From Nannocystis bainbridge (lineage in GTDB: Bacteria; Myxococcota_A; Polyangia; Nannocystales; Nannocystaceae): a DNA stretch of 64,000 nucleotides. The DNA lies in contig NZ_JAQNDL010000001.1 in NCBI RefSeq assembly GCF_028368995.1, positions 3,040,001 through 3,104,000 on the forward strand, read 5' to 3'. The first letter of the stretch is position 1. Every line of letters begins with the position of its first letter. Shown here in pieces: positions 5,736 through 31,981 of this stretch. A program made the translations under genes and the position numbers. The notes beneath the pieces are model-generated. The model ran no database searches. It saw nothing but the letters and a program-made list of their open reading frames with translations, and was not told where the DNA came from.

Positions 5736-7112
5736 TCATCGGCCGGTGAGGACCGCCGCCGGGTCCATGCGCGCGGCCCTGCGGGCGGGCAGCCACGCGC
5801 CGAGGACACAGAACCCCGCGGCGAAGCCGAGCGCCAGGGCCACGAGGTCGAAGCTGAACGCGAAGTACGTCTCGGGCTTGTACGGGAAGTCCGGCAGGTG
5901 CCGGGCCGACACGTAGTCGAACACGCGGCTGGCCCCGTACGCCAGGCCGACGCCGATCGCCCCCGCGACCAGGCCGACGCTGGCCGCCTCGCCGAGGATG
6001 ATGCGCTGGATGTCGGAGCGCCGGGCCCCGACCGCCCGCATGATCCCGATCTCCCGCTGGCGCTCGTACACCAGCATGAAGAACACGTGCATGATGTTGA
6101 CCGCCGCGATGCCGACGATGATCGTCGACAGCAGGCTGAACACCAGCACGAACACGCTGATGAGGAACCCGGCCTGCTCGGCGCCGCCGTCGGTGACCTC
6201 GAAGCCGAGCTCCTCGATCTTCTTGGCCACCGCCGCGACCTGGTCCTTGCCCTCGATCTTGACGATGATCGAGTGGTAACGGGTCGCCGCCTCGGGCGTG
6301 CCGAAGTGGACGTTGTAGCGGGCCACCTGCGACAGCGGCATCGTCACGCCCAGCGGCACCGCCTTGTCGGAGAAGCCGACCAGCTTGAGCCGGTCGTACA
6401 GCAGTTGGTCCTTCTCGGCCGCCTGCACCATCGACGCCCCGACCCGCATCTCGAGCGACACGCCGACCAGGAAGTCCGGGTTGAGCCGCGGCAGGTTGTA
6501 GGCCCGGCGCAGCGAGCCGTTGTAGATCTCGAGCATGTGCGGCGACGCCAGCACCGGCACGTAGTCGCGGCACACCTTGCCCGGCCCGCCCTGGTACGGC
6601 TTGCCGCAGTACATGTCCTTGCCGCACGCCGAGTCGTCGGCGCAGGCCGTCGGCGTCTTGCTCGGCTCGGGCACGTCGCGGAACAGCTCGGCGCCCGCGA
6701 CCTCGCCCTCCACCAGCGCCGGGTCGATGCCGTCGACGATCAGCTCGGTGCGGATGTCGTTGCCGATGATCTCCTTGCCGCCGAGCCCGATCGCCGGGGC
6801 CGTCAGCTTCATCTTCGGGAACACCCCGCGCACCCCCGCGACCCCGCGCAGCTGCTGCGCCGCCGACTCGTCGAGCACGTCGCTGGCGAGCCCGAGGCTG
6901 ACGGGGCCGACGTCGAGCGTCATCGACTTGGCGATCACCTCGAGCTGGTCGAGCGGGAAGATCTTGCCGAGCACGACCTGGCGCACGCCGGCGCCGAGGG
7001 CCAGGAAGAACGCGAACGCGGCGATGCCGACGATCACGCCGACCGACGCCAGCGCGAAGTGGATCGCGTTGTTGCGCAGGTTGCCGCGGACGATCGCGCC
7101 GAGGCTGCTCAT
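5736..7112 (-). CDS. ABC transporter permease (MacB/FtsX family)
   Basis: ERQREIGIMRAVGA motif, C-terminal PARRAARMDP; 4-nt overlap with the ATPase gene. Confidence 0.9.
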   Translation of the reverse strand: MSSLGAIVRGNLRNNAIHFALASVGVIVGIAAFAFFLALGAGVRQVVLGKIFPLDQLEVIAKSMTLDVGPVSLGLASDVLDESAAQQLRGVAGVRGVFPKMKLTAPAIGLGGKEIIGNDIRTELIVDGIDPALVEGEVAGAELFRDVPEPSKTPTACADDSACGKDMYCGKPYQGGPGKVCRDYVPVLASPHMLEIYNGSLRRAYNLPRLNPDFLVGVSLEMRVGASMVQAAEKDQLLYDRLKLVGFSDKAVPLGVTMPLSQVARYNVHFGTPEAATRYHSIIVKIEGKDQVAAVAKKIEELGFEVTDGGAEQAGFLISVFVLVFSLLSTIIVGIAAVNIMHVFFMLVYERQREIGIMRAVGARRSDIQRIILGEAASVGLVAGAIGVGLAYGASRVFDYVSARHLPDFPYKPETYFAFSFDLVALALGFAAGFCVLGAWLPARRAARMDPAAVLTGR

Positions 7113-9611: not shown

Positions 9612-11594
9612 ATGCGCTTACGCTGGCTCGCCTGTCCGACCCTGGCCCTCGCCCTCGCCGGCTGCCCGGGGCCGTACACCCCGGCCACGACCGAGAACGA
9701 GACCTCCAGCTCCAGCGCGAGCAGCAGCAGCCCGACCGAGACCACGACCCAGTCGACGACCACCACCAGCACCGCCGGCCCGACCAGCGAGCCGACCACC
9801 ACCCCGTCGGGCTGCGTGGGCACCGACGAGCGGTGCGACGGCGAGCAGCACCAGATCTGCGTCGGCGGCAATTGGATCGGCGACCCCTGCCCGGCCGGCA
9901 CCGGCTGCCAGGACGGCGCCAAGACCTGCGAGACCTGCGACTGCGCGGCCCCGCCGACCTGCCTCGACGCCTCGACGCTCGAGACCTGCGGCTGCCTGGT
10001 GCCCCAGCAAACCACATGTCCCGAAGGCCAGGCGTGCGACGCCGAGGCCGGGGCCTGCAGCGCCGTGCTCTGCACCCCCGGCGAGCAGACCTGCACCGAC
10101 CAGAACACCCGCCGCACCTGCAACGAGTACGGCACCGGCTACGAGGCGCCGGTCACGTGCGACGGCGACGAGCTGTGCGACCCCGACATGGGCGCCTGCA
10201 TGGCCGCGTGCAGCGTGGTGGCCAAGCGGCAGTCGAGCATCGGCTGCGAGTTCTGGGCCGTCGACATGGCCAACGTCCCGCCGCGCGACGCCTACGTCTA
10301 CGCGGTCGCCGTCTCCAACCCGAGCGCCACCGAGCCGGTCAACGTCGAGATCTTCGACGGCAACAAGAACGGCGCCGAGCAGAAGCTGCTGACCGGCGTG
10401 ATCGCCCCGCGCCAGGTCCGGACCTTCCTGCTGTCGGGCAGCAGCAACAACCAGAACGGCTTCTACCCCGGCGACGCCGGCTTCACCGGCTCCGGCATCG
10501 CCCCCGGCCGGGCCTTCCGCGTCGTCTCCGACCTGCCGATCGTCGCCACCCAGTTCAACCCGCTCGGCGGCGCGCTCGCCTTCACCACCGACGCCTCGCT
10601 GCTGCTGCCGACCCACGCGCTCGGCTCGCGCTACTTCCACCTCGCGTGGGGCGAGGGCCTCGGCAGCGGCTCCTCGCTGGTCGTGGTCGCCACCGCCGAC
10701 GACACCACGATCTCGCTCAAGCCCACGGTCAACGTCGCCGCCGGCCAGAACGGCATGCCCGCGCTGACGAAGGGCGTCACCACCGAGATCAAGCTCGACC
10801 GCTACGACTACGTCCAGCTGCAGACCAACAGCGGCGACACCACCGGCTCGGAGATCGTCGCCGACAAGCCGGTCGCGGTGTTCGGCGGCCACTCGTGCGG
10901 GCAGGTGCCGAACAAGACGGTGACCTTCTGCGACCACCTCGAGGAGCAGATCTTCCCGGTCGACACGTGGGGCATCGAGTACGTCGCCCTGCGCAGCCCC
11001 GCCCGCGGCACCGAGGACATGTTCTGGCGGGTCCTCGCGCGCGAGTCCGGCGCGACCGTCACCTTCACGCCCAAGCCCGAGGGCCTGGCCGAGGCCACGC
11101 AGGTCATCCCCGCCGGCGGCTTCATCCAATTCAACGCCAGCGGCGACTTCCGCATCCAGTCCAACAACCCGATCATGGTCGCCGGCTACATGTACGGCTC
11201 CGAGGCCCCCGGCGTGCCGGCCAACGGCAACCCCGGCGACCCCTCGATGGTGCTGATGGTCCCGACCGAGCAGTGGCTCGGCGACTACGTGTTCCTGGTC
11301 GACAGCTCGTACGCCAACGACAACGTCCGCCTGGTCCGCAAGGCCATGAACAACAACGTCGAGCTCGGCTGCCTCGGCGGCCTCGTGCCCGACGACCACT
11401 GGAAGCAGATCCCCGGCACCCAGTACGTCACCGCGGTCGTCAACATCAACCCCGGCGAGGGCGACTGCCAGGCCGGCACCAACACCGCCTCGGCCAAGAC
11501 CACCACCTTCGGCGTCATCGTCACGGGCGAGGCCCAGGGCGCCTCGTACGCCTACCCCGGCGGCATGGCGCTGAGGGAGATCGCGCCGGGCTGA
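9612..11594 (+). CDS. Cys-rich lipoprotein with IgGFc-binding-like domain
   Basis: LAGC lipobox, Thr/Ser linker, Cys repeats, SIGCEFWAV, DASLLLP, CDHLEEQ, GDPSM, SYAYPGGM. Confidence 0.85.
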   Translation: MRLRWLACPTLALALAGCPGPYTPATTENETSSSSASSSSPTETTTQSTTTTSTAGPTSEPTTTPSGCVGTDERCDGEQHQICVGGNWIGDPCPAGTGCQDGAKTCETCDCAAPPTCLDASTLETCGCLVPQQTTCPEGQACDAEAGACSAVLCTPGEQTCTDQNTRRTCNEYGTGYEAPVTCDGDELCDPDMGACMAACSVVAKRQSSIGCEFWAVDMANVPPRDAYVYAVAVSNPSATEPVNVEIFDGNKNGAEQKLLTGVIAPRQVRTFLLSGSSNNQNGFYPGDAGFTGSGIAPGRAFRVVSDLPIVATQFNPLGGALAFTTDASLLLPTHALGSRYFHLAWGEGLGSGSSLVVVATADDTTISLKPTVNVAAGQNGMPALTKGVTTEIKLDRYDYVQLQTNSGDTTGSEIVADKPVAVFGGHSCGQVPNKTVTFCDHLEEQIFPVDTWGIEYVALRSPARGTEDMFWRVLARESGATVTFTPKPEGLAEATQVIPAGGFIQFNASGDFRIQSNNPIMVAGYMYGSEAPGVPANGNPGDPSMVLMVPTEQWLGDYVFLVDSSYANDNVRLVRKAMNNNVELGCLGGLVPDDHWKQIPGTQYVTAVVNINPGEGDCQAGTNTASAKTTTFGVIVTGEAQGASYAYPGGMALREIAPG

Positions 11595-11697: not shown

Positions 11698-13005
11698 ATG
11701 TCCTACCATGCGCGCCGCATGCCGCTGCACACCCGGATCTTGCTCGGCCTCGCGGTCGGCGCGGCCCTCGGCCTCGGCGCCAACCTCGGCCTCGGCGCCG
11801 ACCATGCCGTCGTCCAGTTCGTGCTGACCTACGTCGCCGGCCCGCTCGGCCAGGTCTTCCTGCGCATCCTCTCGATGGTGGTGATGCCGCTGGTGTTCGC
11901 CTCGATCGCCCTCGGCGTCGCCGGCGTCGGCGACATCCGCCGCGCCGGCCGCATGGGCGTCAAGACCCTCGCCTTCTTCCTCGTCACCACCGCGCTCGCC
12001 TCCGCTCTCGGCCTGCTGCTCGTCAGCCTCGTCGACCCTGGCGCCTACGTCTCGCCCGCGGTCCGCGACGAGCTCGTGGCCCAGTACGCGCGCACCAGCG
12101 GCCCCCCGCCCGCGCCGACCAGCTTCGGCGTCGAGACCTTCGTCGGCATCGTCACCCGTAACCCGCTCAAGTCGGCGGTCGACGGCGACATGCTCGGCGT
12201 GATCTTCTTCGGCCTGATGTTCGGCGCCGGCATCACCCTGATCCGCGAGGACCGGCAAAAGACCATGATGGGCTTCCTCGAGGCGCTCGCCGAGGTCATC
12301 TCGGCGATCGTCGACATGGCCATGAAGATCGCGCCCTACGGCGTGGCCGGCCTGATCTTCGGCGTCACCGCCCTGTTCGGCTTCGCCCTGCTCGCCCCGC
12401 TCGGCGTCTACGTGGCCCTGGTCCTGGGCGCCCTCGCGCTGCACGCCATCGGCACCATGGGCCTCGTGATCCGCGCCCTCGTCGGCGTGTCGCCGTGGAT
12501 CTTCTTCTCCAAGATCCGCGCCGCCCTCGTCACCGCCTTCTCGACCTCCTCGAGCAGCGCCACCCTGCCGACCAACCTCCTCGTCGGCCAGCAAAACCTC
12601 GGCATCCCGCCGCGGATCTGCGGCTTCGTCTATCCGCTCGGCGCGACGATGTGCATGAACGGCACCGCCCTGTTCGAGGGCATCACCGTGATCTTCCTGT
12701 GCCAGGTGTTCGGGGTGGCGCTCAGCCTCGGCCAGATGGCGGTCATCATCGCCATGGCGGTGCTCACCTCGGTCGGCGCCGCCGCCGTCCCGGGCGGCTC
12801 GATCCCGCTGCTGGTCGGCATGCTGACCATGTTCGGCGTCCCGGGCGAGGGTATCGCCGTGATCATCGGCATCGACCGGATCCTCGACATGGCCCGCACC
12901 TCGGTGAACGTGCTCGGCGACCACGTCGCCGCCGCCTTCGTCGCCCGCAGCGAGGGCCTGTGGAGCCCCGAGCACCTCACGAAATCTGTTCCTCCGGACA
13001 GGTGA
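11698..13005 (+). CDS. dicarboxylate/amino acid:cation symporter (GltP/DAACS)
   Basis: AFSTSSSSATLP, PLGATMCMNGT, IDRILDMARTSVNVLGD. Confidence 0.93.
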   Translation: MSYHARRMPLHTRILLGLAVGAALGLGANLGLGADHAVVQFVLTYVAGPLGQVFLRILSMVVMPLVFASIALGVAGVGDIRRAGRMGVKTLAFFLVTTALASALGLLLVSLVDPGAYVSPAVRDELVAQYARTSGPPPAPTSFGVETFVGIVTRNPLKSAVDGDMLGVIFFGLMFGAGITLIREDRQKTMMGFLEALAEVISAIVDMAMKIAPYGVAGLIFGVTALFGFALLAPLGVYVALVLGALALHAIGTMGLVIRALVGVSPWIFFSKIRAALVTAFSTSSSSATLPTNLLVGQQNLGIPPRICGFVYPLGATMCMNGTALFEGITVIFLCQVFGVALSLGQMAVIIAMAVLTSVGAAAVPGGSIPLLVGMLTMFGVPGEGIAVIIGIDRILDMARTSVNVLGDHVAAAFVARSEGLWSPEHLTKSVPPDR

Positions 13006-13164
13006 GCCTGCCTCGCACCCACGGCGGTGCGGCCCTTGTCCCCCAGCCGCGCGCGCCTCGGGCAGGCCCGGAGCCGCCCCGCCCGGAGCGGCGCGCGCCC
13101 GATCGCACCGCGAATCCGCGAGGCCGGGTGCGAAGGCCCACAGAACTCGGTATGGTAGTGCTCC

Positions 13165-16155
13165 ATGGCGCCCCTTCTCGAGCAGGCCAGCGACGTCGCC
13201 GCGTGGAAGCCCCGTTCTGCGCTCCTCGGCACGCTGCTGGCCAACCGCTACCGGATCACCCAATCCATCGGTCAGGGTTCGACCGGCGCGGTCTACCGCG
13301 CCGAAGACCTGTTGATGAACCGGCCGGTCGCGGTCCGGATCCTCGTCCCGAGCCTCGCGCAGAACCCTACGGTGGTCTCGCGGATCCGCGCTCGCATCGA
13401 CCGCAACATCAAGATCCAGCAGCAGCAGCCTGATGCGTTGGTCAACCTCGTCGACGCATTCGACGTCGGCATGACCCTCGAGGGCGAGCTCTTCATCGTC
13501 ACCGATTTCCTCGACGGTGATCATCTTTCGGCGATGCTCGAGCGCGGCGGTCGGCTGCCGTGGTCGCGCGCCCGCCACCTCTTCATTCGCCTGAGCCAGC
13601 TCCTGCAGGCCCTGCACGAGCGGGGCATCGTGCTCGGCACGCTGCAGGCGCGGCACTGCTACGCGGTCCGCAACCGGCCGAAGAACGAGGCGATCAAGAT
13701 CGTGAGCACGGCGGTGTTCGAGCACATCGCCGCCAACCTCGGCCCGGGCGCCGGCGAGGTCGGGACGCAGATGGCCCGCTATGCCGCGCCGGAGCAGGGC
13801 TGCGGCGAGCCGACGGACATCCGCACCGACGTCTACTCGCTCGGCATCATCGCCTACGAGCTGCTGACCGGGAAGCTGCCGTTCAACGAGACCAACCCGA
13901 TCCGACTGGTCGCGCAGCACCTGCACGCCACGCCGCTGCCGCTGCGCCAGGTCGCGCCCGACGCCGACATCCCGGCCGCGGTCGAGGAGGTCGTGCTCAA
14001 GGCGCTGTCCAAGTCGCCTGCCGATCGCCACCCGAGCATGGAGGCCTTCGCCGCCGCGCTGTCGGCGATCCCCGCCGACGAGGCCGGCGCGCCGACGACG
14101 GCCACCGGCGCCTTCGCCACCGTCGCGCCCGCCGAGCCGCTGCCCTCGACGCCCCCGCCACCGCCGCCGCCCAAGCCGCTGGCCTCGACGCTACCTGTCT
14201 CTTCGGACAACCTCTCCGCACCTGTCCCTTCGGTCAGCTCGGCCGCCGCCGCCGCTGCCGTCGAGGAGCCGTCGCCGTCGACCTCCGGCGCCGCGCCGGC
14301 GAAGATCGCCCCCTCGGTGGTCATGCGCGGGCTCATCGACGCCCCCGCCACTCCGCCGGGCCCGCCTCCGCCCCCGCCGACCTCGATCGCCCCGCCGCCG
14401 CCGGTCGGCCCGCGACGGCCGCCGTCGATCGCGGTGCCGACGCTGATCCCCTCGCCGCGCCGCCCGTCCGAGCCGGTCGCCTCGGCACCTGTACCTTCGG
14501 CCATGTCCGAAAGCGCAGCCGACAAGCCGACCGAGGCCCCGGTCGCCGCCGAGCCGCCGCCGGCCCCCGCGCCCGAAGCCCCGCCGGCCGCCACGCCTGT
14601 CGCCGCAGCGCTCGCGACGCCCGCAGCGCCCGAGACGCCCGTGGCTGCCGAGCAGCCGCCCGCTGCCGCCGAGCCACCCGCGCCCGCTGCCGCCGAGCCT
14701 CCTGCGCCCGCCGCCGCCGAGCCGCCCGTCGCCGCCGCCGAGCCGCCTCCGCCCAGCGCCGCCGAGCTGCCGCCGCCGCCGCCCTTCGCCGCCGAGACCC
14801 CGCCGCCTCCGCCGCACTACGCCGCCGAGACCCCGCCCCCGCCTCCGCCCTACGCTGCCGAGCCCCCGCCTGCGCCGGCGCCGATCGCCGCTGCGCCGCC
14901 GCCTCCGCCGGCCCCTGCTGCCGAGCCGACGGTCGCCGCCGTGCCGCCGCCTTCGGCCAAGCCCGCTCCGCTGCCCGCCGAGATCATCCGGATCCCCGCG
15001 CCCGGCGAGTCCATGCGCGCGAGCCTCAGCGACTCGATGCGCGCCTCGGCCGAGTCCCTGCGCGCCGCGATCCCGGCCGACTCGATGCGGGCCCCGATCG
15101 CCGCCGACTCCGTGCGCGCCCCGGCCCCGGCCGACTCGACCCGCGCCGCCGCGCCTGCCGACTCGATGCGGGCGCCGATCTCCAGCGACTCCGCGCGGGT
15201 CCGGGCGGCCGAGATCGTGGCTGTCCCTGCGGCCCTGTCCGCAAAGCCAGATGAAGCCTCGGCCGCCGCCTCGGTCAGCGCGCGCCGGGTCGCCGCCGCC
15301 GACGTCGCCCCCGAGACCTTGCGGGCCGCCGCCCTGCGCCAGTCGCAGTCGGGCGAGCGCCTGACCTCGAGCGCCGAGCTGCGGCCGACCGAGTCGATCA
15401 TCGCCGAGCTGCCGAAGCGGCGGACCCCGTGGGTCGCGATCGTCGGCCTCGGCGCCGCGCTGGCTGCCGGCGCCGCCGCGTACATCCAGACCGAGCCCGA
15501 GGTCGCCCCGCAGGCCAATCGCGCCGTCACGCCGCCGCCGGCCAAAATCGAGCCGAAGACCGCCCCGCCGGTCAAGGCCGACCCCACGCCGATCCCCGCC
15601 AAGGTCGAGCCGCCGCCGCCCGATCCGGTCCCGATCGTCGCGCCCCCGCCCGACCCCGAGCCCGCCCCGCGCGACGTCGAGAGCGAGGAGCCGAAGAAGA
15701 AGAAGAAGCGCCGGGCCAAGAGCACCGAGCCCGAGGAGGAAGAGGAGGATCTGTTCGACCAGGTCCGCAAGCACATGGAGGCCAAGAAGGCCCAGGAGGA
15801 GGCCTACAAGAAGGCCGCCGAGGCCGGCACCTCGCTGCCCGGACCTGCGCCCACCCCGGCCAACGCCATGCCCGCGCCCGCGCCCAAGCCGGCCGTCGAG
15901 GACAACGCCACCAAGGCCAAGGACACCCTCGACCGCGCCCGCCAGGCCGCGCAGCAGAGCAACCATCCCCTCGCGTACAGCCTCGCCAAGCAGGCCAACG
16001 CGCTCGCGCGCTCGCAGGACGCGATCGAGCTCATGGGCGTGTCTGCCTGCAAGGCCGGCAACGCCGACAACGCCCGCAGCGCCGCCGACCAGCTGACCGG
16101 CGCGCGCCGCAGCGCCGTCTACAGCGCCTGCGCCGGCAACGGCATCACCCTCTGA
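13165..16155 (+). CDS. Ser/Thr kinase-like protein (probable pseudokinase) with Pro-rich linker, TM and C-terminal domain
   Basis: IGQGSTGAVY, YAAPEQ and DVYSLG retained; VAxK, HRD and DFG motifs degenerate; TM at PWVAIVGLGAALAAGAAAY. Confidence 0.85.
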   Translation: MAPLLEQASDVAAWKPRSALLGTLLANRYRITQSIGQGSTGAVYRAEDLLMNRPVAVRILVPSLAQNPTVVSRIRARIDRNIKIQQQQPDALVNLVDAFDVGMTLEGELFIVTDFLDGDHLSAMLERGGRLPWSRARHLFIRLSQLLQALHERGIVLGTLQARHCYAVRNRPKNEAIKIVSTAVFEHIAANLGPGAGEVGTQMARYAAPEQGCGEPTDIRTDVYSLGIIAYELLTGKLPFNETNPIRLVAQHLHATPLPLRQVAPDADIPAAVEEVVLKALSKSPADRHPSMEAFAAALSAIPADEAGAPTTATGAFATVAPAEPLPSTPPPPPPPKPLASTLPVSSDNLSAPVPSVSSAAAAAAVEEPSPSTSGAAPAKIAPSVVMRGLIDAPATPPGPPPPPPTSIAPPPPVGPRRPPSIAVPTLIPSPRRPSEPVASAPVPSAMSESAADKPTEAPVAAEPPPAPAPEAPPAATPVAAALATPAAPETPVAAEQPPAAAEPPAPAAAEPPAPAAAEPPVAAAEPPPPSAAELPPPPPFAAETPPPPPHYAAETPPPPPPYAAEPPPAPAPIAAAPPPPPAPAAEPTVAAVPPPSAKPAPLPAEIIRIPAPGESMRASLSDSMRASAESLRAAIPADSMRAPIAADSVRAPAPADSTRAAAPADSMRAPISSDSARVRAAEIVAVPAALSAKPDEASAAASVSARRVAAADVAPETLRAAALRQSQSGERLTSSAELRPTESIIAELPKRRTPWVAIVGLGAALAAGAAAYIQTEPEVAPQANRAVTPPPAKIEPKTAPPVKADPTPIPAKVEPPPPDPVPIVAPPPDPEPAPRDVESEEPKKKKKRRAKSTEPEEEEEDLFDQVRKHMEAKKAQEEAYKKAAEAGTSLPGPAPTPANAMPAPAPKPAVEDNATKAKDTLDRARQAAQQSNHPLAYSLAKQANALARSQDAIELMGVSACKAGNADNARSAADQLTGARRSAVYSACAGNGITL

Positions 16156-16292: not shown

Positions 16293-16344
16293 TCACATGT
16301 CCCCATGAACATGTCTCCAAGAGCATGCTCTTCAGGACATACCC
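16293..16344. repeat. 14-bp-phased CATG array
   Basis: CATG at 16296, 16310, 16324; CATA at 16338. Confidence 0.8.
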
Positions 16345-16509
16345 ACGTGCCTGTCTGCCCGCGGCGATCGTCGCCCGCTCTCGCCCGCGCCGCGCGGACG
16401 CATGCCTGAGCTCCGCGGCCGCCGCACGAGCGATCCGCCGCCTCGACTTCACCGGCCTCGCCTGCCACCGTGAAGATCGGCCAATACGCGGCCGAGAAAG
16501 CGAGTCACC

Positions 16510-16584
16510 ATGAAGACGAAGACGAGCACCCGCGCCGGCTCTGGCTCCGGCTCTGTTGGTACCAACCCGCTGTACAGCGGCTAG
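16510..16584 (+). CDS. micropeptide 1, MKTKTSTRAGSGSGSVGTNPLYSG (24 aa)
   Basis: One of four paralogous short ORFs with shared leader and NPL[YF]; preceded by GAGAAAGCGAGTCACC. Confidence 0.8.
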   Translation: MKTKTSTRAGSGSGSVGTNPLYSG

Positions 16585-16650
16585 CGCCGCCCCTGCCCGA
16601 CATGTCCTTTTTGACATGTTGCGAGGCAGCCGCCGCGACCGCTGTGGCAT

Positions 16651-16671
16651 CACGGCACACGCGGTGCCGCC
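16651..16671. promoter_or_regulatory. conserved palindrome CACGGCACACGCGGTGCCGCC (copy 1); hairpin or sigma54-like GG-N10-GC
   Basis: Near-identical copies at 16837 and 17166. Confidence 0.6.
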
Positions 16672-16709
16672 ACGACAACGAACCACCGGACCCGAGAAAC
16701 GAAGGACTG

Positions 16710-16763
16710 ATGAAGATCAAGACCAACACCCGCGCCGGCGGCGACAACCCGCTCTACCACTGA
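16710..16763 (+). CDS. micropeptide 2, MKIKTNTRAGGDNPLYH (17 aa)
   Basis: Paralog of peptide 1; GAAGGA RBS-like sequence upstream. Confidence 0.8.
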   Translation: MKIKTNTRAGGDNPLYH

Positions 16764-16836
16764 CCTCGCAGAGCATGTCCCTCCGGACATTTCCCCATGC
16801 GAGACGAACGCCAGGCCGCGACGACCGCCGCGGCCC

Positions 16837-16857
16837 CACGGCACACGCAGTGCCGCC
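16837..16857. promoter_or_regulatory. conserved palindrome copy 2
   Basis: CACGGCACACGCAGTGCCGCC. Confidence 0.6.
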
Positions 16858-16915
16858 CGATCGCAACCCGACAACGGCAGCGGGCCACCCGCCCGCGGCC
16901 GAGGACGAGCTGACC

Positions 16916-16972
16916 ATGAAGACCAGGACCCACACGCGCGCTGGCGGCGTCGCCATCAACCCCCTCTACTAG
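16916..16972 (+). CDS. micropeptide 3, MKTRTHTRAGGVAINPLY (18 aa)
   Basis: Paralog; GAGGACGAGCTGACC upstream. Confidence 0.8.
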   Translation: MKTRTHTRAGGVAINPLY

Positions 16973-17032
16973 CCGTGTTCTTTAAACCTGTCCGCTGTGC
17001 GAACCCGTCGGCGGGCGAGAAACGAGCTGACC

Positions 17033-17095
17033 ATGAAGACGAGAACCAACACCCGCGCCCGCGCCGGCACTGGCGAAAACCCGCTGTTCACCTGA
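17033..17095 (+). CDS. micropeptide 4, MKTRTNTRARAGTGENPLFT (20 aa)
   Basis: Paralog; GAGAAACGAGCTGACC upstream. Confidence 0.8.
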   Translation: MKTRTNTRARAGTGENPLFT

Positions 17096-17165
17096 CCTGC
17101 CGCGACGTGTCCTTCCGGCACGGCCCTGGCAGGGCGAACGATCTGGGCGCCGTGACCACCGCCCC

Positions 17166-17186
17166 CACGGCACACGCAGTGCCGCC
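17166..17186. promoter_or_regulatory. conserved palindrome copy 3
   Basis: CACGGCACACGCAGTGCCGCC. Confidence 0.6.
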
Positions 17187-17229
17187 TCGATCGCAGCCGT
17201 GAGCCGCAGAGGGCTTTCAGCCGCACAAA

Positions 17230-17300
17230 AGGTCCCGTCGGGATTCGAACCCGAATAACCCGTGTTGCAGACGGGCACCTGGCCGCTCGGACACGGGACC
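17230..17300 (-). tRNA. tRNA-Cys(GCA), copy A
   Basis: Acceptor GGTCCCG/CGGGACC, anticodon arm CCCGT-CTGCAAC-ACGGG, T arm TCGGG-TTCGAAT-CCCGA, U73; CCA not encoded. Confidence 0.9.
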
Positions 17301-17334
17301 ATGCTCTGCTCCGATCTCTCCCAGTTCTCAAAAG

Positions 17335-17405
17335 AGGTCCCGTCGGGATTCGAACCCGAATAACCCGTGTTGCAGACGGGCACCTGGCCGCTCGGACACG
17401 GGACC
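17335..17405 (-). tRNA. tRNA-Cys(GCA), copy B (identical to A)
   Basis: Same 71-nt cloverleaf. Confidence 0.9.
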
Positions 17406-17441
17406 ATGCTCTGATCTCTCCCCATTCTTTATTTTATAAAA

Positions 17442-17512
17442 AGGTCCCGTCGGGATTCGAACCCGAATAGCTCGAGTTGCAGTCGAGCACCTGGCCGTTC
17501 GGACACGGGACC
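17442..17512 (-). tRNA. tRNA-Cys(GCA), copy C
   Basis: Same scaffold with a compensatory anticodon stem CTCGA-CTGCAAC-TCGAG. Confidence 0.9.
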
Positions 17513-17652
17513 CAATGTTTGATTCGCGGCGTGGTGAATCGATGCAGCCGCGGCGACGCGGTGGCATCAATCGCCGGCCCTGCCGAGCACGACTCGCGCG
17601 CATGAATGCGACGACTCGAGCGCGGCGGCGCGGACCGGTGCGTCTGGCGTCT

Positions 17653-28402: not shown

Positions 28403-28450
28403 CCCGCCGCTCGCGGTGTGCTCGACTTCTCCTTACCCCTGGAATTCAGC

Positions 28451-30172
28451 ATGCGACTCCCCTCCCAAGCCCCCCTCGCCGCGGTCCTCGTCCCGCTCCT
28501 GCTGACCGGTTGCCCCGGCCTCCTGGGCAACGCGACCGGCGGCACCGACGGCGACACCTCGACCTCGACGACCACCGGCCCGGCGCCGACCACGATCCCC
28601 GACCTCACCACCACCGGCTTCATGCTCGAGTGCTACCCGGGCACCCTGCGCTGCGACCCGAAGAACAAGGGCGTGGTCCAGGAGTGCAAGGACACCGGCC
28701 TGGCGTGGGAGTCGACCCCCTGCACCGACGTCGAGGACTGCATCGAGGACGTCAGCGCCGGCACCGCCGAGTGCACCGGCCCGTGCGAGCGCATCGACAA
28801 CCCGACCTCGGTCGGCTGCGAGTTCCTCGCCATCCGCATGAACAGCTTCAACTTCGAGGACGATGCCAAGGATGTTCTGATCGTCGGCAACACCGACACG
28901 ACGCGCACGGCCCAGATCCAGCTGTGGTTCACGCCCAACAACAGCTTCACCGAGGAGCCGCTGTTCGAGCCGGTGCTGCTCGGGCCCGGCGAGTCGCACA
29001 TCTTCGACGTCGTCAACGACACGCTGAAGGGCTACACCGCGTTCCGCACCGGCGGCGTGTTCCGCGTCGAGAGCGACGTGCCGGTCACCGCCTACCTGCA
29101 CTCGGCGCTCGCCAACACCGCCAGCAACGACTCGTCGATGCTGCTGCCGACGCCGACCCTGGCCAAGGACTACGTCATCGCCTCGTACCCCGGCTTCGCC
29201 GACCCGGTGAAGCCCGACGAGATCAACGGCCGGCCGAGCTACTTCAACGTCATCGCCGTCGAGGACAACACCACCGTCCAGTGGGTCGCCCCGCGCGACA
29301 CCGCCGCCCAGGGCGTCCTCATCCCCGCGGTCCCGGCCGGCGAGACGGGCACGATCACGCTCAACCGCTTCGACGTGCTGCAGGTCGGCGCGTCGTCGGC
29401 CACCAACATGGAGATGATCACCCACGACCTGTCGGGCACGGTCGTCAGCGCCGACAAGAAGATCTGGGTGATGGGCGCGACCGAGTGCGCGTTCGTGCCG
29501 TTCACCGTCGGCTACTGCAACCACCTGCAGGAGCAGATGATCCCGCTCGAGTACTGGGGCAAGAAGTACGTCGGCCCCCACTCGCCGTCGCGGGCGATGG
29601 AGAAGCACTACTGGCGGATCTACGCCGGCAAGGACGGCGTCACCGTCACCGTCGAGTCCAACGACCAGAGCTTCAAGGTGCAGCCGATCACGCTGGTCAA
29701 GCGCGGCGACTGGAAGGAGATCGAGGTCCCGCACAACGTCAGCCTGATCTTCACCGCGACCGGGCCGATCCTGCCGGTGCAGTACCTGACGGGCGGCAAG
29801 GCGGCCAACAACATCGGCGACCCCGCGATGTACCAGATGATCGCCGTCGAGCAGTGGCTGACCCGCTACGCGGTCGTCACCGGCATCGGCTACGAGCTCA
29901 ACTACGCCCAGGTGATCCGCAAGAAGGGCGCCGCCGACGTCTCGATCAACGGCCAGACCGTCACCGGCTGGTACCTCATCAACGGCACCGGCGCGGACAA
30001 CCAGTGGGAGGTCGCCGACTACCAGCTGGCCGACGGCGCCGAGGCCCGCAGCTACGTCGCCGAGTCGACCGACCCCTTCAACATCGTCGTCCTCGGCTAC
30101 CAGCCCGGCATCCCCAGCTCGGCCTACGCCTACCCCGGCGGCATGAACCTCAAGAAGATCTACGCCCCGTGA
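28451..30172 (+). CDS. IgGFc-binding-like domain lipoprotein
   Basis: LLTGC, SVGCEFLA, CNHLQEQM, GDPAM, AYAYPGGM. Confidence 0.85.
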   Translation: MRLPSQAPLAAVLVPLLLTGCPGLLGNATGGTDGDTSTSTTTGPAPTTIPDLTTTGFMLECYPGTLRCDPKNKGVVQECKDTGLAWESTPCTDVEDCIEDVSAGTAECTGPCERIDNPTSVGCEFLAIRMNSFNFEDDAKDVLIVGNTDTTRTAQIQLWFTPNNSFTEEPLFEPVLLGPGESHIFDVVNDTLKGYTAFRTGGVFRVESDVPVTAYLHSALANTASNDSSMLLPTPTLAKDYVIASYPGFADPVKPDEINGRPSYFNVIAVEDNTTVQWVAPRDTAAQGVLIPAVPAGETGTITLNRFDVLQVGASSATNMEMITHDLSGTVVSADKKIWVMGATECAFVPFTVGYCNHLQEQMIPLEYWGKKYVGPHSPSRAMEKHYWRIYAGKDGVTVTVESNDQSFKVQPITLVKRGDWKEIEVPHNVSLIFTATGPILPVQYLTGGKAANNIGDPAMYQMIAVEQWLTRYAVVTGIGYELNYAQVIRKKGAADVSINGQTVTGWYLINGTGADNQWEVADYQLADGAEARSYVAESTDPFNIVVLGYQPGIPSSAYAYPGGMNLKKIYAP

Positions 30173-30265
30173 CCGCGAGGCGCGGCGATCCTGCCGCGCT
30201 CGCCTGCTGTCCCTTTGCACCTGGTCTTCGGGCCAGGTCCTGCTTATCATGATTGGATTGCATCG

Positions 30266-31981
30266 ATGCCCCACCTTTACGCTCCCCGCGTGTGTCTGGG
30301 CGCGCTCGTGCTGCTCGCGGCCTGCCCCGACCTGATCAACCCCGCCGACAGCGCCAGCGCCAGCGCCACCACGACCGCCACCGGCGAACCGGCGACCACC
30401 ACCACCACGGCGCCCGACCCGACCACCGGCTTCGAGCCGCTGTGTCTGCCCGGCCAGACCCGCTGCGACCCCGGGCAGGCCAACGTGCTGCAGACCTGCA
30501 AGGCCACCGGCACCGAGTGGGAGTCGAGCCCGTGCGCGCACCAGTGCGTCGACGACATCGAGTCGTCCGCGTGCGCCGGCCCGTGCGACACCGACGACGA
30601 CCCGACCTCGATCGGCTGCGAGTTCCTGGCCATCCGCATGGACAGCCACAACGGCCCCGACGAACCCGACGCGCTGATCGTCGGCAACACCGACCCCGAC
30701 GAGCTCGCCGCCGTCCAGCTCTACTACACCCCGGCCAACGACTTCACCGAGCAGGCGATCCTCGACCCGGTAATCCTCGCGCCCGGCGAGTCGCACGTGT
30801 TCGACATCACCGTCGACCCGCTGGCGTTCACCAGCTTCCGCAACGGCGGGGTGTTCCGCCTCGTCAGCGACCGCCCGGTCGCCGCCTACCTGCACTCGCC
30901 GCTCGCCAACGACTCCAGCAACGACGCCTCGATGCTGCTGCCGGTCCGCTGGCTGCGCAAGGACTACGTCGTCGCCTCGTGGCCGCCGTTCGTCGACGCC
31001 GCCCAGCCCGACACCATCAACGGCCGCCCCAGCTACTTCACCGTCATCGCCCTCGAGGACGACACCACCGTGACGTGGCAGCCGCGCCAGCGCACCGCCG
31101 GCTTCGGCACCCAGTTCGAGGCGGTCGAGCCGGGCGCCACCGGGACCAAGGTCATGCACCGCTTCGACGTGCTGCAGGTCGCCGCCTCCTCGCCGCCGGG
31201 CGACACCGACTACGTGCACCACGACGTGTCCGGCACGCTCGTCAGCGCCGACAAGAACATCTGGGTCATGGGCGCGACCGACTGCGCCTACGTGCCGTTC
31301 GGCTCCGGGTGGTGCAACCACCTCCAGGAGCAGATGATCCCGCTCGAGTACTGGGGCAGCACGTACATCGGCCCGCCCTCGCCCCCGCGCTCCGGCACCG
31401 AGAAGCAGTACTGGCGCGTCTACGCCGGCGACGACGACGTCACGCTCGCCATCACCAACAGCGGCGACGCCAACACCGAGTTCAAGATGCTCGCCGAGCG
31501 CGGCGAGTTCGTCGAGGTCGAGGCCGATTTCGGCGTCAGCCTGCTGTTCGTCGGCCTCAACGACGCGCCGATCCTCCCGGTCCAGTATTTGGCCGGCAAC
31601 GAGGCCGCGGGCGGGATCGGCGACCCGGCGATGATCCAGATGATCGCCGTCGAGCAGTGGCGCGATCGTTACGTGTTCGTGACGGGCGCCGACTACGAAG
31701 CCAACTTCGTGCAGATCGTGCGCCGCACCGGCGGCGCGGACGTGACGATCGACGGCCAGGTCGTCGGCGACTGGAAGCTCGCCAACTTCGCGGGCGACGA
31801 CAACTATCAGATCGCCGACTTCCCGCTGCCTGGCGGCGCCGACGCGATCACCTCCATGGCGGCCTCGACCGAACCGTTCGGCATCCACGTGATCGGCTAC
31901 AACCCGGCCGGTCCGGGCGACAAGACCTCGGCCTACGCCTATCCCGGCGGCATGCGGCTCGAGAAGTTGTTCGTGCCGTGA
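30266..31981 (+). CDS. IgGFc-binding-like domain lipoprotein (tandem paralog)
   Basis: LLAAC and the same motif set; closely similar to 28451-30172. Confidence 0.85.
   Translation: MPHLYAPRVCLGALVLLAACPDLINPADSASASATTTATGEPATTTTTAPDPTTGFEPLCLPGQTRCDPGQANVLQTCKATGTEWESSPCAHQCVDDIESSACAGPCDTDDDPTSIGCEFLAIRMDSHNGPDEPDALIVGNTDPDELAAVQLYYTPANDFTEQAILDPVILAPGESHVFDITVDPLAFTSFRNGGVFRLVSDRPVAAYLHSPLANDSSNDASMLLPVRWLRKDYVVASWPPFVDAAQPDTINGRPSYFTVIALEDDTTVTWQPRQRTAGFGTQFEAVEPGATGTKVMHRFDVLQVAASSPPGDTDYVHHDVSGTLVSADKNIWVMGATDCAYVPFGSGWCNHLQEQMIPLEYWGSTYIGPPSPPRSGTEKQYWRVYAGDDDVTLAITNSGDANTEFKMLAERGEFVEVEADFGVSLLFVGLNDAPILPVQYLAGNEAAGGIGDPAMIQMIAVEQWRDRYVFVTGADYEANFVQIVRRTGGADVTIDGQVVGDWKLANFAGDDNYQIADFPLPGGADAITSMAASTEPFGIHVIGYNPAGPGDKTSAYAYPGGMRLEKLFVP

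Follow-up and report, generated by a model that had tools for sequence, protein, structure and literature searches.

A decapeptide leader shared by unannotated micropeptide genes of Nannocystis and other myxobacteria

Results and Discussion

Four tandem micro-genes with a common leader

We describe a family of very short bacterial genes that encode the same N-terminal decapeptide followed by unrelated tails. The family was recognized in a 64,000-nucleotide (nt) stretch of the Nannocystis bainbridge genome (11.05 Mb, 71.5% G+C), where four tandem micro-genes of 17-24 codons each lie between the gene for a 996-amino-acid (aa) membrane pseudokinase and three convergent tRNA-Cys genes. This whole stretch (G000:C1:3040001-3104000) is called the window; genomes carry G numbers, with G000 being that of N. 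bainbridge. The leader consensus is M-K-(T/K)-(K/R)-(T/S)-x-(T/I/V)-(K/R)-(A/S)-G, and ~70 micro-open reading frames (ORFs) of 14-40 aa that carry it before an unrelated short tail were read in 17 genomes, from Polyangia and a further lineage of Myxococcota. The leader-tagged superfamily is undescribed and unannotated, and the window array is its accessory NPL branch. Our best reading, held at about even confidence, is export: the decapeptide would be a minimal double-glycine-type leader, and an unlinked C39-peptidase transporter would remove it and export the tail.

The four micro-genes are given below with their profile expectation values (E).

16510-16584, + strand: micro-gene 1, 24 aa, MKTKTSTRAGSGSGSVGTNPLYSG; leader MKTKTSTRAG, tail SGSGSVGTNPLYSG; E 1.0e-9
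16710-16763, + strand: micro-gene 2, 17 aa, MKIKTNTRAGGDNPLYH; leader MKIKTNTRAG, tail GDNPLYH; E 9.9e-10
16916-16972, + strand: micro-gene 3, 18 aa, MKTRTHTRAGGVAINPLY; leader MKTRTHTRAG, tail GVAINPLY; E 3.8e-10
17033-17095, + strand: micro-gene 4, 20 aa, MKTRTNTRARAGTGENPLFT; leader MKTRTNTRARAG (two-codon insertion), tail TGENPLFT; E 1.7e-8

An earlier note, made from the letters of this stretch alone, had reported these ORFs, and re-reading matched it exactly in coordinates and sequences. The common upstream segment it had seen is also present, as a CGAGAAACGAG-like stretch preceding each of the four ORFs. AAGGA was found 3 nt ahead of the ATG of micro-gene 2 and GAGGA 10 nt ahead of that of micro-gene 3. 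A scan for sigma-70 consensus promoters returned 0 sites. Four DNA read sets yielded short contig pieces only, with one intergenic difference.

Evidence for translation

A six-frame regular-expression search of the whole genome matched the motif in these four ORFs only. We then used a degenerate DNA pattern, consisting of the leader, a free gap of 6-36 nt (any length) and NPL, on 401 genomes of the class. It gave 6 matches in 3 of the 401 genomes, all of one genus (four in G000, one in G001 and one in G003), and 0 in the reversed control. The gaps in all six (30, 12, 18, 21, 12 and 9 nt) are multiples of three, in agreement with the earlier claim that the middle changes in length by whole codons. 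Over the 12 conserved codons of these six close copies, variation at codon positions 1/2/3 is 2/3/8. The synonymous codons noted earlier at conserved residues (CTG/CTC, CCG/CCC, GCC/GCT) are real; across the six copies, Pro is written CCG or CCC and Leu CTG, CTC or CTA. Lys and Arg exchange at leader position 8 (AAG versus CGC codons). G001 has a second, more divergent copy with a GTG start, MKTKPKPRSGVAHNPLR. Variation mainly at third positions in the six close copies, with indels of whole codons, bears out the proposed selection on the peptide, and we consider it very probable that all four ORFs are translated.

We take the four micro-genes to be the product of tandem duplication, and the NPL branch to be young, accessory and tandemly expanded. 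It occurs in 3 of 11 Nannocystis species genomes, and the strict NPL[YF] pattern, run on 41 relatives, matched the genome of N. bainbridge alone. A scan of 185,579 species genomes produced eight stretches, among which the sole true member was that of Nannocystis punicea FL3 (corresponding to G001). Two Thermoguttaceae matches ('MKTKTGTRSCMNMNPLF') fall within an ORF for a 355-aa lipoprotein but in another reading frame, and the other five stretches are in long ORFs or have no in-frame NPL. Metagenome contigs gave seven stretches and 0 members. Two viral-contig ORFs (110 and 79 aa) that start with MKTKT.TRAG are longer and were taken as chance matches. Antisense 80-aa ORFs across the units were likewise rejected, their conservation being limited to the antisense of the leader.

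Members in other genera

A constant leader ending in AG/GG with a variable core, as proposed in the earlier note, is real and extends to the ~70 micro-ORFs. A profile of seven Nannocystis peptides, run on the order (73 genomes), also gave matches outside Nannocystis. Tandem arrays that combine this leader with different tails are present in G100 (four ..PW.. peptides, three of SFRAGGSFGTF type and three singletons) and in G278 (two Cys-containing peptides); a conserved neighbor was absent at most loci. Leader-only patterns added G191 (a six-gene array), G575, G712, G232, G043, G054, G050 and G226, with 0-5 matches in reversed controls. The class sample of 301 genomes gave 43 matches, spread over 16 genomes, versus 5 in the reversed control; on reading, 4 of these 16 look like chance.

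In G575, 17 leader ORFs, each with a GGAGG site, form one 9-kb cluster (in L101, G575:C162:46000-65900; ORFs at 6664-6967, 12208-13016 and 14750-15673). Their tails overlap one another as fragments of a single longer sequence: two ORFs share STAKGYEKWIKLY, two CLVEHVDWS and two STGLSSGRTSV, and SASNPSTVS recurs in three. The tails resemble Hcp slightly (one Pfam match at E 0.03 and one match to Hcp1 in the PDB at E 0.95). Three other pieces gave no Hcp match, alignment of the tails to four Nannocystaceae Hcps gave z-scores of at most 3.8, and no Pfam-detectable Hcp gene was found in G575; the likeness is a weak lead only.

Four NCBIfam queries returned 0 families, and nine peptides searched against Pfam at E≤10 returned 0 matches. 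The only member of sufficient length for a query (40 aa) found no relative but itself in a collection of 5.8 billion proteins. Six leader strings had no match in the literature searched, and nothing on the leader family was found there at the level of titles and abstracts. Genes of 15-25 codons escape standard annotation.

Singletons conserved across Nannocystis species

Three more members occur elsewhere in G000 (MKTKSKVKAGTSHHG, MKTKSKVKAGGLNVSGL and MKKKTKIQAGLFLDR; 0 in the reversed-genome control). All stand alone; their Shine-Dalgarno sites are strong, and each gene has a hairpin that resembles a terminator. For MKTKSKVKAGTSHHG and MKTKSKVKAGGLNVSGL, all six Nannocystis species compared encode the same peptide (100% identity), and the nucleotide changes by codon position (0/0/3 and 0/0/1, respectively) fall in third positions only. 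ORF identity is 97.5% and 99.4%, versus 43-80% in the flanks and 74-92% for neighboring proteins. One tail of the conserved singletons recurs in another genus (G232).

These singletons favor the explanation that the peptides act whole inside the cell. The basic, alternating N-terminal strand would dock onto one conserved macromolecule (the ribosome, nucleic acid or another abundant partner), with the tail giving specificity. Full-length conservation of MKTKSKVKAGTSHHG and MKTKSKVKAGGLNVSGL, their strong Shine-Dalgarno sites, own terminators and stable synteny, and the lack of a conserved neighbor at most loci all fit this explanation. The leader is also loosely like the N-terminus of bL36 from the same genome (MKVRASVRKI), sharing its M-K start and the alternation of basic with small or beta-branched residues. 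There is no similarity at profile level, however: at E≤1 the Ribosomal_L36 profile matches rpmJ alone in the genome, the peptides have no Pfam or NCBIfam match, and they stop after 5-14 further residues. Whole-peptide action would also leave hypervariable tails and copy number unexplained, as well as the two transporter-linked arrays and the co-occurrence described below. We regard it as possible but unlikely.

As a separate observation, MKTKSKVKAGTSHHG (15 aa) has as its divergent neighbor, in G000 and three of the five other species checked, the gene for an extracytoplasmic function (ECF) sigma factor that carries a SnoaL-like domain (L121, L126, L135 and L137). If the leader were removed, the tail of this peptide would be TSHHG, with an X-X-His start; an X-X-His N-terminus is a Cu/Ni-binding motif.

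Association with C39-peptidase transporters

In G191, two arrays are physically linked to transporter genes. The six-ORF array on contig C32 is followed on the same strand by genes with HlyD_3, Peptidase_C39+ABC_tran+ABC_membrane and ABC_tran domains. On contig C37, a second C39 transporter is found downstream of four tandem precursors, with two uncharacterized ORFs between; ORFs of 765 and 250 aa are present at this locus. These precursors have a 33-aa leader ending in VVRTG[VI]KAG and tails of 3-5 aa, and one of the four is frameshifted. We read the end of this long leader as the decapeptide of the micro-ORFs.

G000 has a homologous trio of genes for HlyD, a peptidase-containing ATP-binding cassette transporter (PCAT) and an ABC protein on contig C2 at ~2.935-2.941 Mb (33%, 38% and 37% identity, respectively). 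Its C39 domain retains intact MDCGPA and THFVV motifs, which we take to be those of the catalytic Cys and His. Co-occurrence was assessed in one set of 44 Nannocystaceae genomes (completeness of 90% or more), used for both leader and transporter. Credible leader ORFs occur in 8 of these, each of which encodes the transporter subtype; among the remaining 36, 4 encode it. The hypergeometric P value is 2.8e-6, or 7.7e-4 with Nannocystis counted as one unit; both figures should be considered overstatements due to the relatedness of the genomes.

Separately, G000:C2 carries a different set of tandem micro-ORFs at ~2932012-2932210 (L171 6013-6211, - strand). These are three head-to-tail 22-aa ORFs of the MKDLRGDRDEPAPGDRSEGLTR type that overlap by ATGA; they lie ~2.6 kb from the trio and are divergent to it.

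Proposed mechanism

Due to the linkage in G191, the intact trio in G000 and the co-occurrence, we read the decapeptide as a putative minimal double-glycine-type leader. It would be recognized by the C39-peptidase ABC transporter, the HlyD-type adaptor and the second ABC protein, encoded in G000 by the trio on C2. The transporter would cleave after A-G; the cut after G10, the export and the use of an unlinked transporter are each predicted steps. The predicted products of the window array are SGSGSVGTNPLYSG, GDNPLYH, GVAINPLY and TGENPLFT. Because of their size (7-14-mers), a role as secreted signals would be the more likely one.

Several observations weigh against export by this route. Four of the 36 leader-negative genomes carry the transporter, physical linkage was observed for just two loci, both in G191, and a search of the 10 kb around the G000 trio found no leader ORF. 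In G100, G232, G043 and G575, the arrays are either on another contig than the transporter or distant from it. At 10 residues the leader is short; it ends in A-G rather than G-G/G-A and is basic at position -7. The 3-5-aa tails at G191:C37 would make unusual products. Shine-Dalgarno-like sites are weak for micro-genes 1 and 4, and the fully conserved singletons, which may equally be intracellular, resemble housekeeping small proteins more than secreted accessory peptides.

The closest comparison is with double-glycine peptides exported by PCATs, such as ComC/ComAB and class II bacteriocins. Shared features are small tandem precursor genes, a leader ending in two small residues, the G191 order of array, HlyD and C39-ABC genes, and the intact C39 Cys and His motifs in G000. 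Double-glycine leaders are typically ~15-30 aa long; G occupies position -2 and G, A or S position -1, and positions -4, -7 and -12 are hydrophobic. Here, in contrast, the leader has 10 aa (12 in micro-gene 4), with A/S at -2, G at -1, T/I/V at -4 and K/R at -7. It is strongly basic without the hydrophobic -7/-12 pattern, and most precursors have 14-28 aa. The genes are mostly dispersed singletons unlinked to a transporter, and the host is a Gram-negative myxobacterium. We take the family to work like PCAT substrates but do not file it as a double-glycine member, since its leader departs from the sequence definition of that class.

Myxobacteria are classic social bacteria, and ribosomal peptide signals are, to our knowledge, rare in Gram-negative bacteria. 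We offer as a tentative and rather unlikely extension that the decapeptide is a portable export address for arbitrary very short ribosomal peptides in these social, predatory organisms. The singletons would then be species-wide signals, and fast-changing arrays, such as the NPL[YFH] set of the window, would be lineage-specific peptide pheromones or kin codes. In G575, the attachment of this address to 17 overlapping fragments of a longer, weakly Hcp-like sequence suggests that it could also be joined to parts of other proteins. If so, this would be Gram-negative peptide signaling with the smallest known double-glycine-type leader. If the pairing of leader and transporter is correct, Nannocystaceae would secrete a hidden repertoire of 3-30-residue peptides, part of it fixed across species and part with fast turnover in copy number and sequence, and the 10-residue leader could be a useful minimal tag for peptide export.

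Possible modification of the tails

The earlier note had proposed exported signals or precursors of ribosomally synthesized and post-translationally modified peptides (RiPPs). Export with leader cleavage is supported by the G191 linkage and the co-occurrence; RiPP modification is not, as no maturase is conserved at the loci examined. Strict RiPP precursors would require a maturase that recognizes the decapeptide and modifies the tails before, or instead of, simple export. A conserved leader and a variable, indeed hypervariable, core are found in the paralogues, many of them in multi-copy arrays, as in RiPP precursors. The neighborhood of the 17-ORF cluster of G575 also includes an ABC1 kinase and, between the arrays, two Trans_reg_C-AAA_16 regulators and a Cys-rich protein of 519 aa that has no Pfam family. 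The prochlorosins (with a Nif11/NHLP leader) are a precedent for dispersed precursors served by one distant enzyme. They too have many scattered precursors, one leader, hypervariable cores and machinery elsewhere that includes a C39 transporter, but their leaders are several times longer and their cores are lanthionine-modified by ProcM, whereas the cores here lack a common Cys/Ser/Thr pattern.

Pfam scans of 39 of the 40 window ORFs supported by third-position G+C (GC3) found no maturase family, in agreement with the earlier statement that the window holds no modifying enzyme, and no C39 transporter. No maturase, co-localized or strictly co-occurring, was common to the other loci examined, and the tails have no common modifiable residue. 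The Cys-rich 519-aa protein was rejected as a universal maturase: homologues occur in 5 of 5 Nannocystis genomes tested and in G712, with none in the array-bearing G100, G191 and G278. Because no maturase was found at these loci, the family does not qualify, as we read it, as a demonstrable RiPP, and modification by such an enzyme is improbable. Export by the C39 transporter remains our preferred reading. Type I toxins, which are hydrophobic transmembrane peptides, are no match, as the peptides described here are hydrophilic and basic and contain no stretch of hydrophobic residues.

Stem-loops and probable duplication of the unit

The following elements surround the micro-genes.

16425-16509, + strand: 5' flank of micro-gene 1, conserved with the flanks of the G001 and G003 copies
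16593-16629, + strand: first 3' stem-loop of micro-gene 1, built on a genome-wide ACATGTCC/GGACATGT palindrome; fold z-score of the whole 3' region, -2.99
16644-16670, + strand: second 3' stem-loop of micro-gene 1, with the locus-specific invariant motif ACGGCACACGCGGTGC at 16652-16667
16765-16803, + strand: first 3' stem-loop of micro-gene 2, CATGTCC..GGACAT; z-score of the 3' region, -4.34
16839-16855, + strand: second 3' stem-loop of micro-gene 2, with motif ACGGCACACGCAGTGC at 16838-16853
17096-17133, + strand: first 3' stem-loop of micro-gene 4, a degenerate palindrome with a bulge; z-score of the 3' region only -0.25
17168-17184, + strand: second 3' stem-loop of micro-gene 4, with motif ACGGCACACGCAGTGC at 17167-17182; final element before the convergent tRNA-Cys genes

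Two stem-loops are found 3' of every gene except micro-gene 3, where micro-gene 4 comes directly; since it has no 3' stem-loops, micro-gene 3 is probably co-transcribed with micro-gene 4. The second stem-loop contains a 16-nt motif, ACGGCACACGC(G/A)GTGC, with three occurrences in the genome, all here. It is invariant in 6 of 6 copies save for one loop position (G or A). Two matches to this hairpin motif outside Nannocystis are both inside coding sequence and were attributed to chance. The GGCAC-N5-GTGC motif also fits the GG-N10-GC spacing of sigma-54-like sites on both strands; however, for 3 of the 6 copies, namely the final ones in G000 and G001 and the one in G003, no + strand gene lies downstream.

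These elements raise the possibility that the ORFs are cis-regulatory leader peptides of attenuator type, or that the units are non-coding RNAs or repeats with incidental ORFs. Two conserved 3' stem-loops per unit, the nearly invariant motif and a first palindrome that is a genome-wide repeat all point that way, and a short Thr-/Lys-rich ORF followed by stem-loops resembles thrL and other attenuator peptides of amino-acid operons. Attenuation would call for a same-strand gene after the terminator, and none was found in G000, in G003 or at the singleton B locus. In G000 and G001, what follows is a convergent tRNA-Cys gene; the G003 copy is followed by a NADAR gene, likewise convergent, and singleton B is isolated between two opposite-strand genes. 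There is no downstream operon, and conservation is at the peptide level across unrelated tails. The substitution patterns fit selection on protein, and an Rfam scan of the window locus matched only tRNAs. We consider this explanation highly improbable.

The 5' flank is part of a longer similarity, with 79% identity between window 16425-16539 and G001. A G003 copy located elsewhere, together with peptide-free syntenic sites, would define a moving or duplicating unit made of 5' flank, ORF and two stem-loops. Inclusion of the flank in a mobile unit was rejected, as it represents what had been the 3' flank of the pseudokinase gene: remnants persist downstream of that gene in G005, G010 and the G003 syntenic site, all without peptides.

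The palindrome of the first stem-loop, GGACATGTCC, has 956 copies in the 11 Mb genome (e.g., window 16295-16340, 16599-16620 and 16770-16790). By crude gene calls, 628 copies are outside genes, with 278 in convergent (3'-3') versus 62 in divergent spacers of similar total length. It looks like a gene-end element of the repetitive extragenic palindromic (REP) type.

Neighboring genes and synteny

The gene for the 996-aa pseudokinase (13165-16155, + strand), a membrane protein with a degenerate kinase domain, ends 355 nt upstream of the array on the same strand, and the arrangement is likewise found in G001, which is syntenic with the window. The earlier note had suggested that this protein, an M61 peptidase or a hybrid histidine kinase nearby could be the receptor, processing enzyme or sensor of a local system. 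The position of the array favors this, and genes like Ser/Thr kinases lie within ~3 kb at 5 of 10 loci, a weak count because kinases are very frequent in these genomes.

Synteny contradicts the suggestion. In G005, G007, G010 and the G003 syntenic site, the block of pseudokinase, tRNA-Cys and M61 genes is kept with spacers of 70-790 nt and no such ORF. The single G003 copy is at an unrelated locus, after a STAND NTPase-TPR gene and before a convergent NADAR gene, with no neighbor in common with the window. At ~10 loci of the wider family, adjacent genes are unrelated (among them T2SSE, TerB, metallophosphatase, thioredoxin-like, GH31 and ECF sigma factor), the exception being G191. Because the block is kept in peptide-free species, the window neighbors do not appear to be specific partners, and a local system of this kind is very improbable and largely refuted.

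The 996-aa protein has a Pfam kinase fold, lacking the usual catalytic motifs by reading. It further contains a single transmembrane segment, a helical domain at the C-terminus and a very long linker, rich in Pro and Ala, in which 'ADSMRAP'-like repeats occur in tandem. The three tRNA-Cys genes lie at 17230-17513 (- strand), convergent to the array. Tandem tRNA-Cys(GCA) arrays of 3-4 genes are kept at this site in Nannocystis, with one gene in G010. In G001, degenerate tRNA-Cys-like remnants ~1.7 kb from the intact array suggest an insertion or duplication there. Elsewhere in the window, three paralogues with an IgGFc_binding domain (Pfam E 1e-67 to 1e-78) are encoded on the + strand at 9612-11594, 28418-30172 and 30215-31981.

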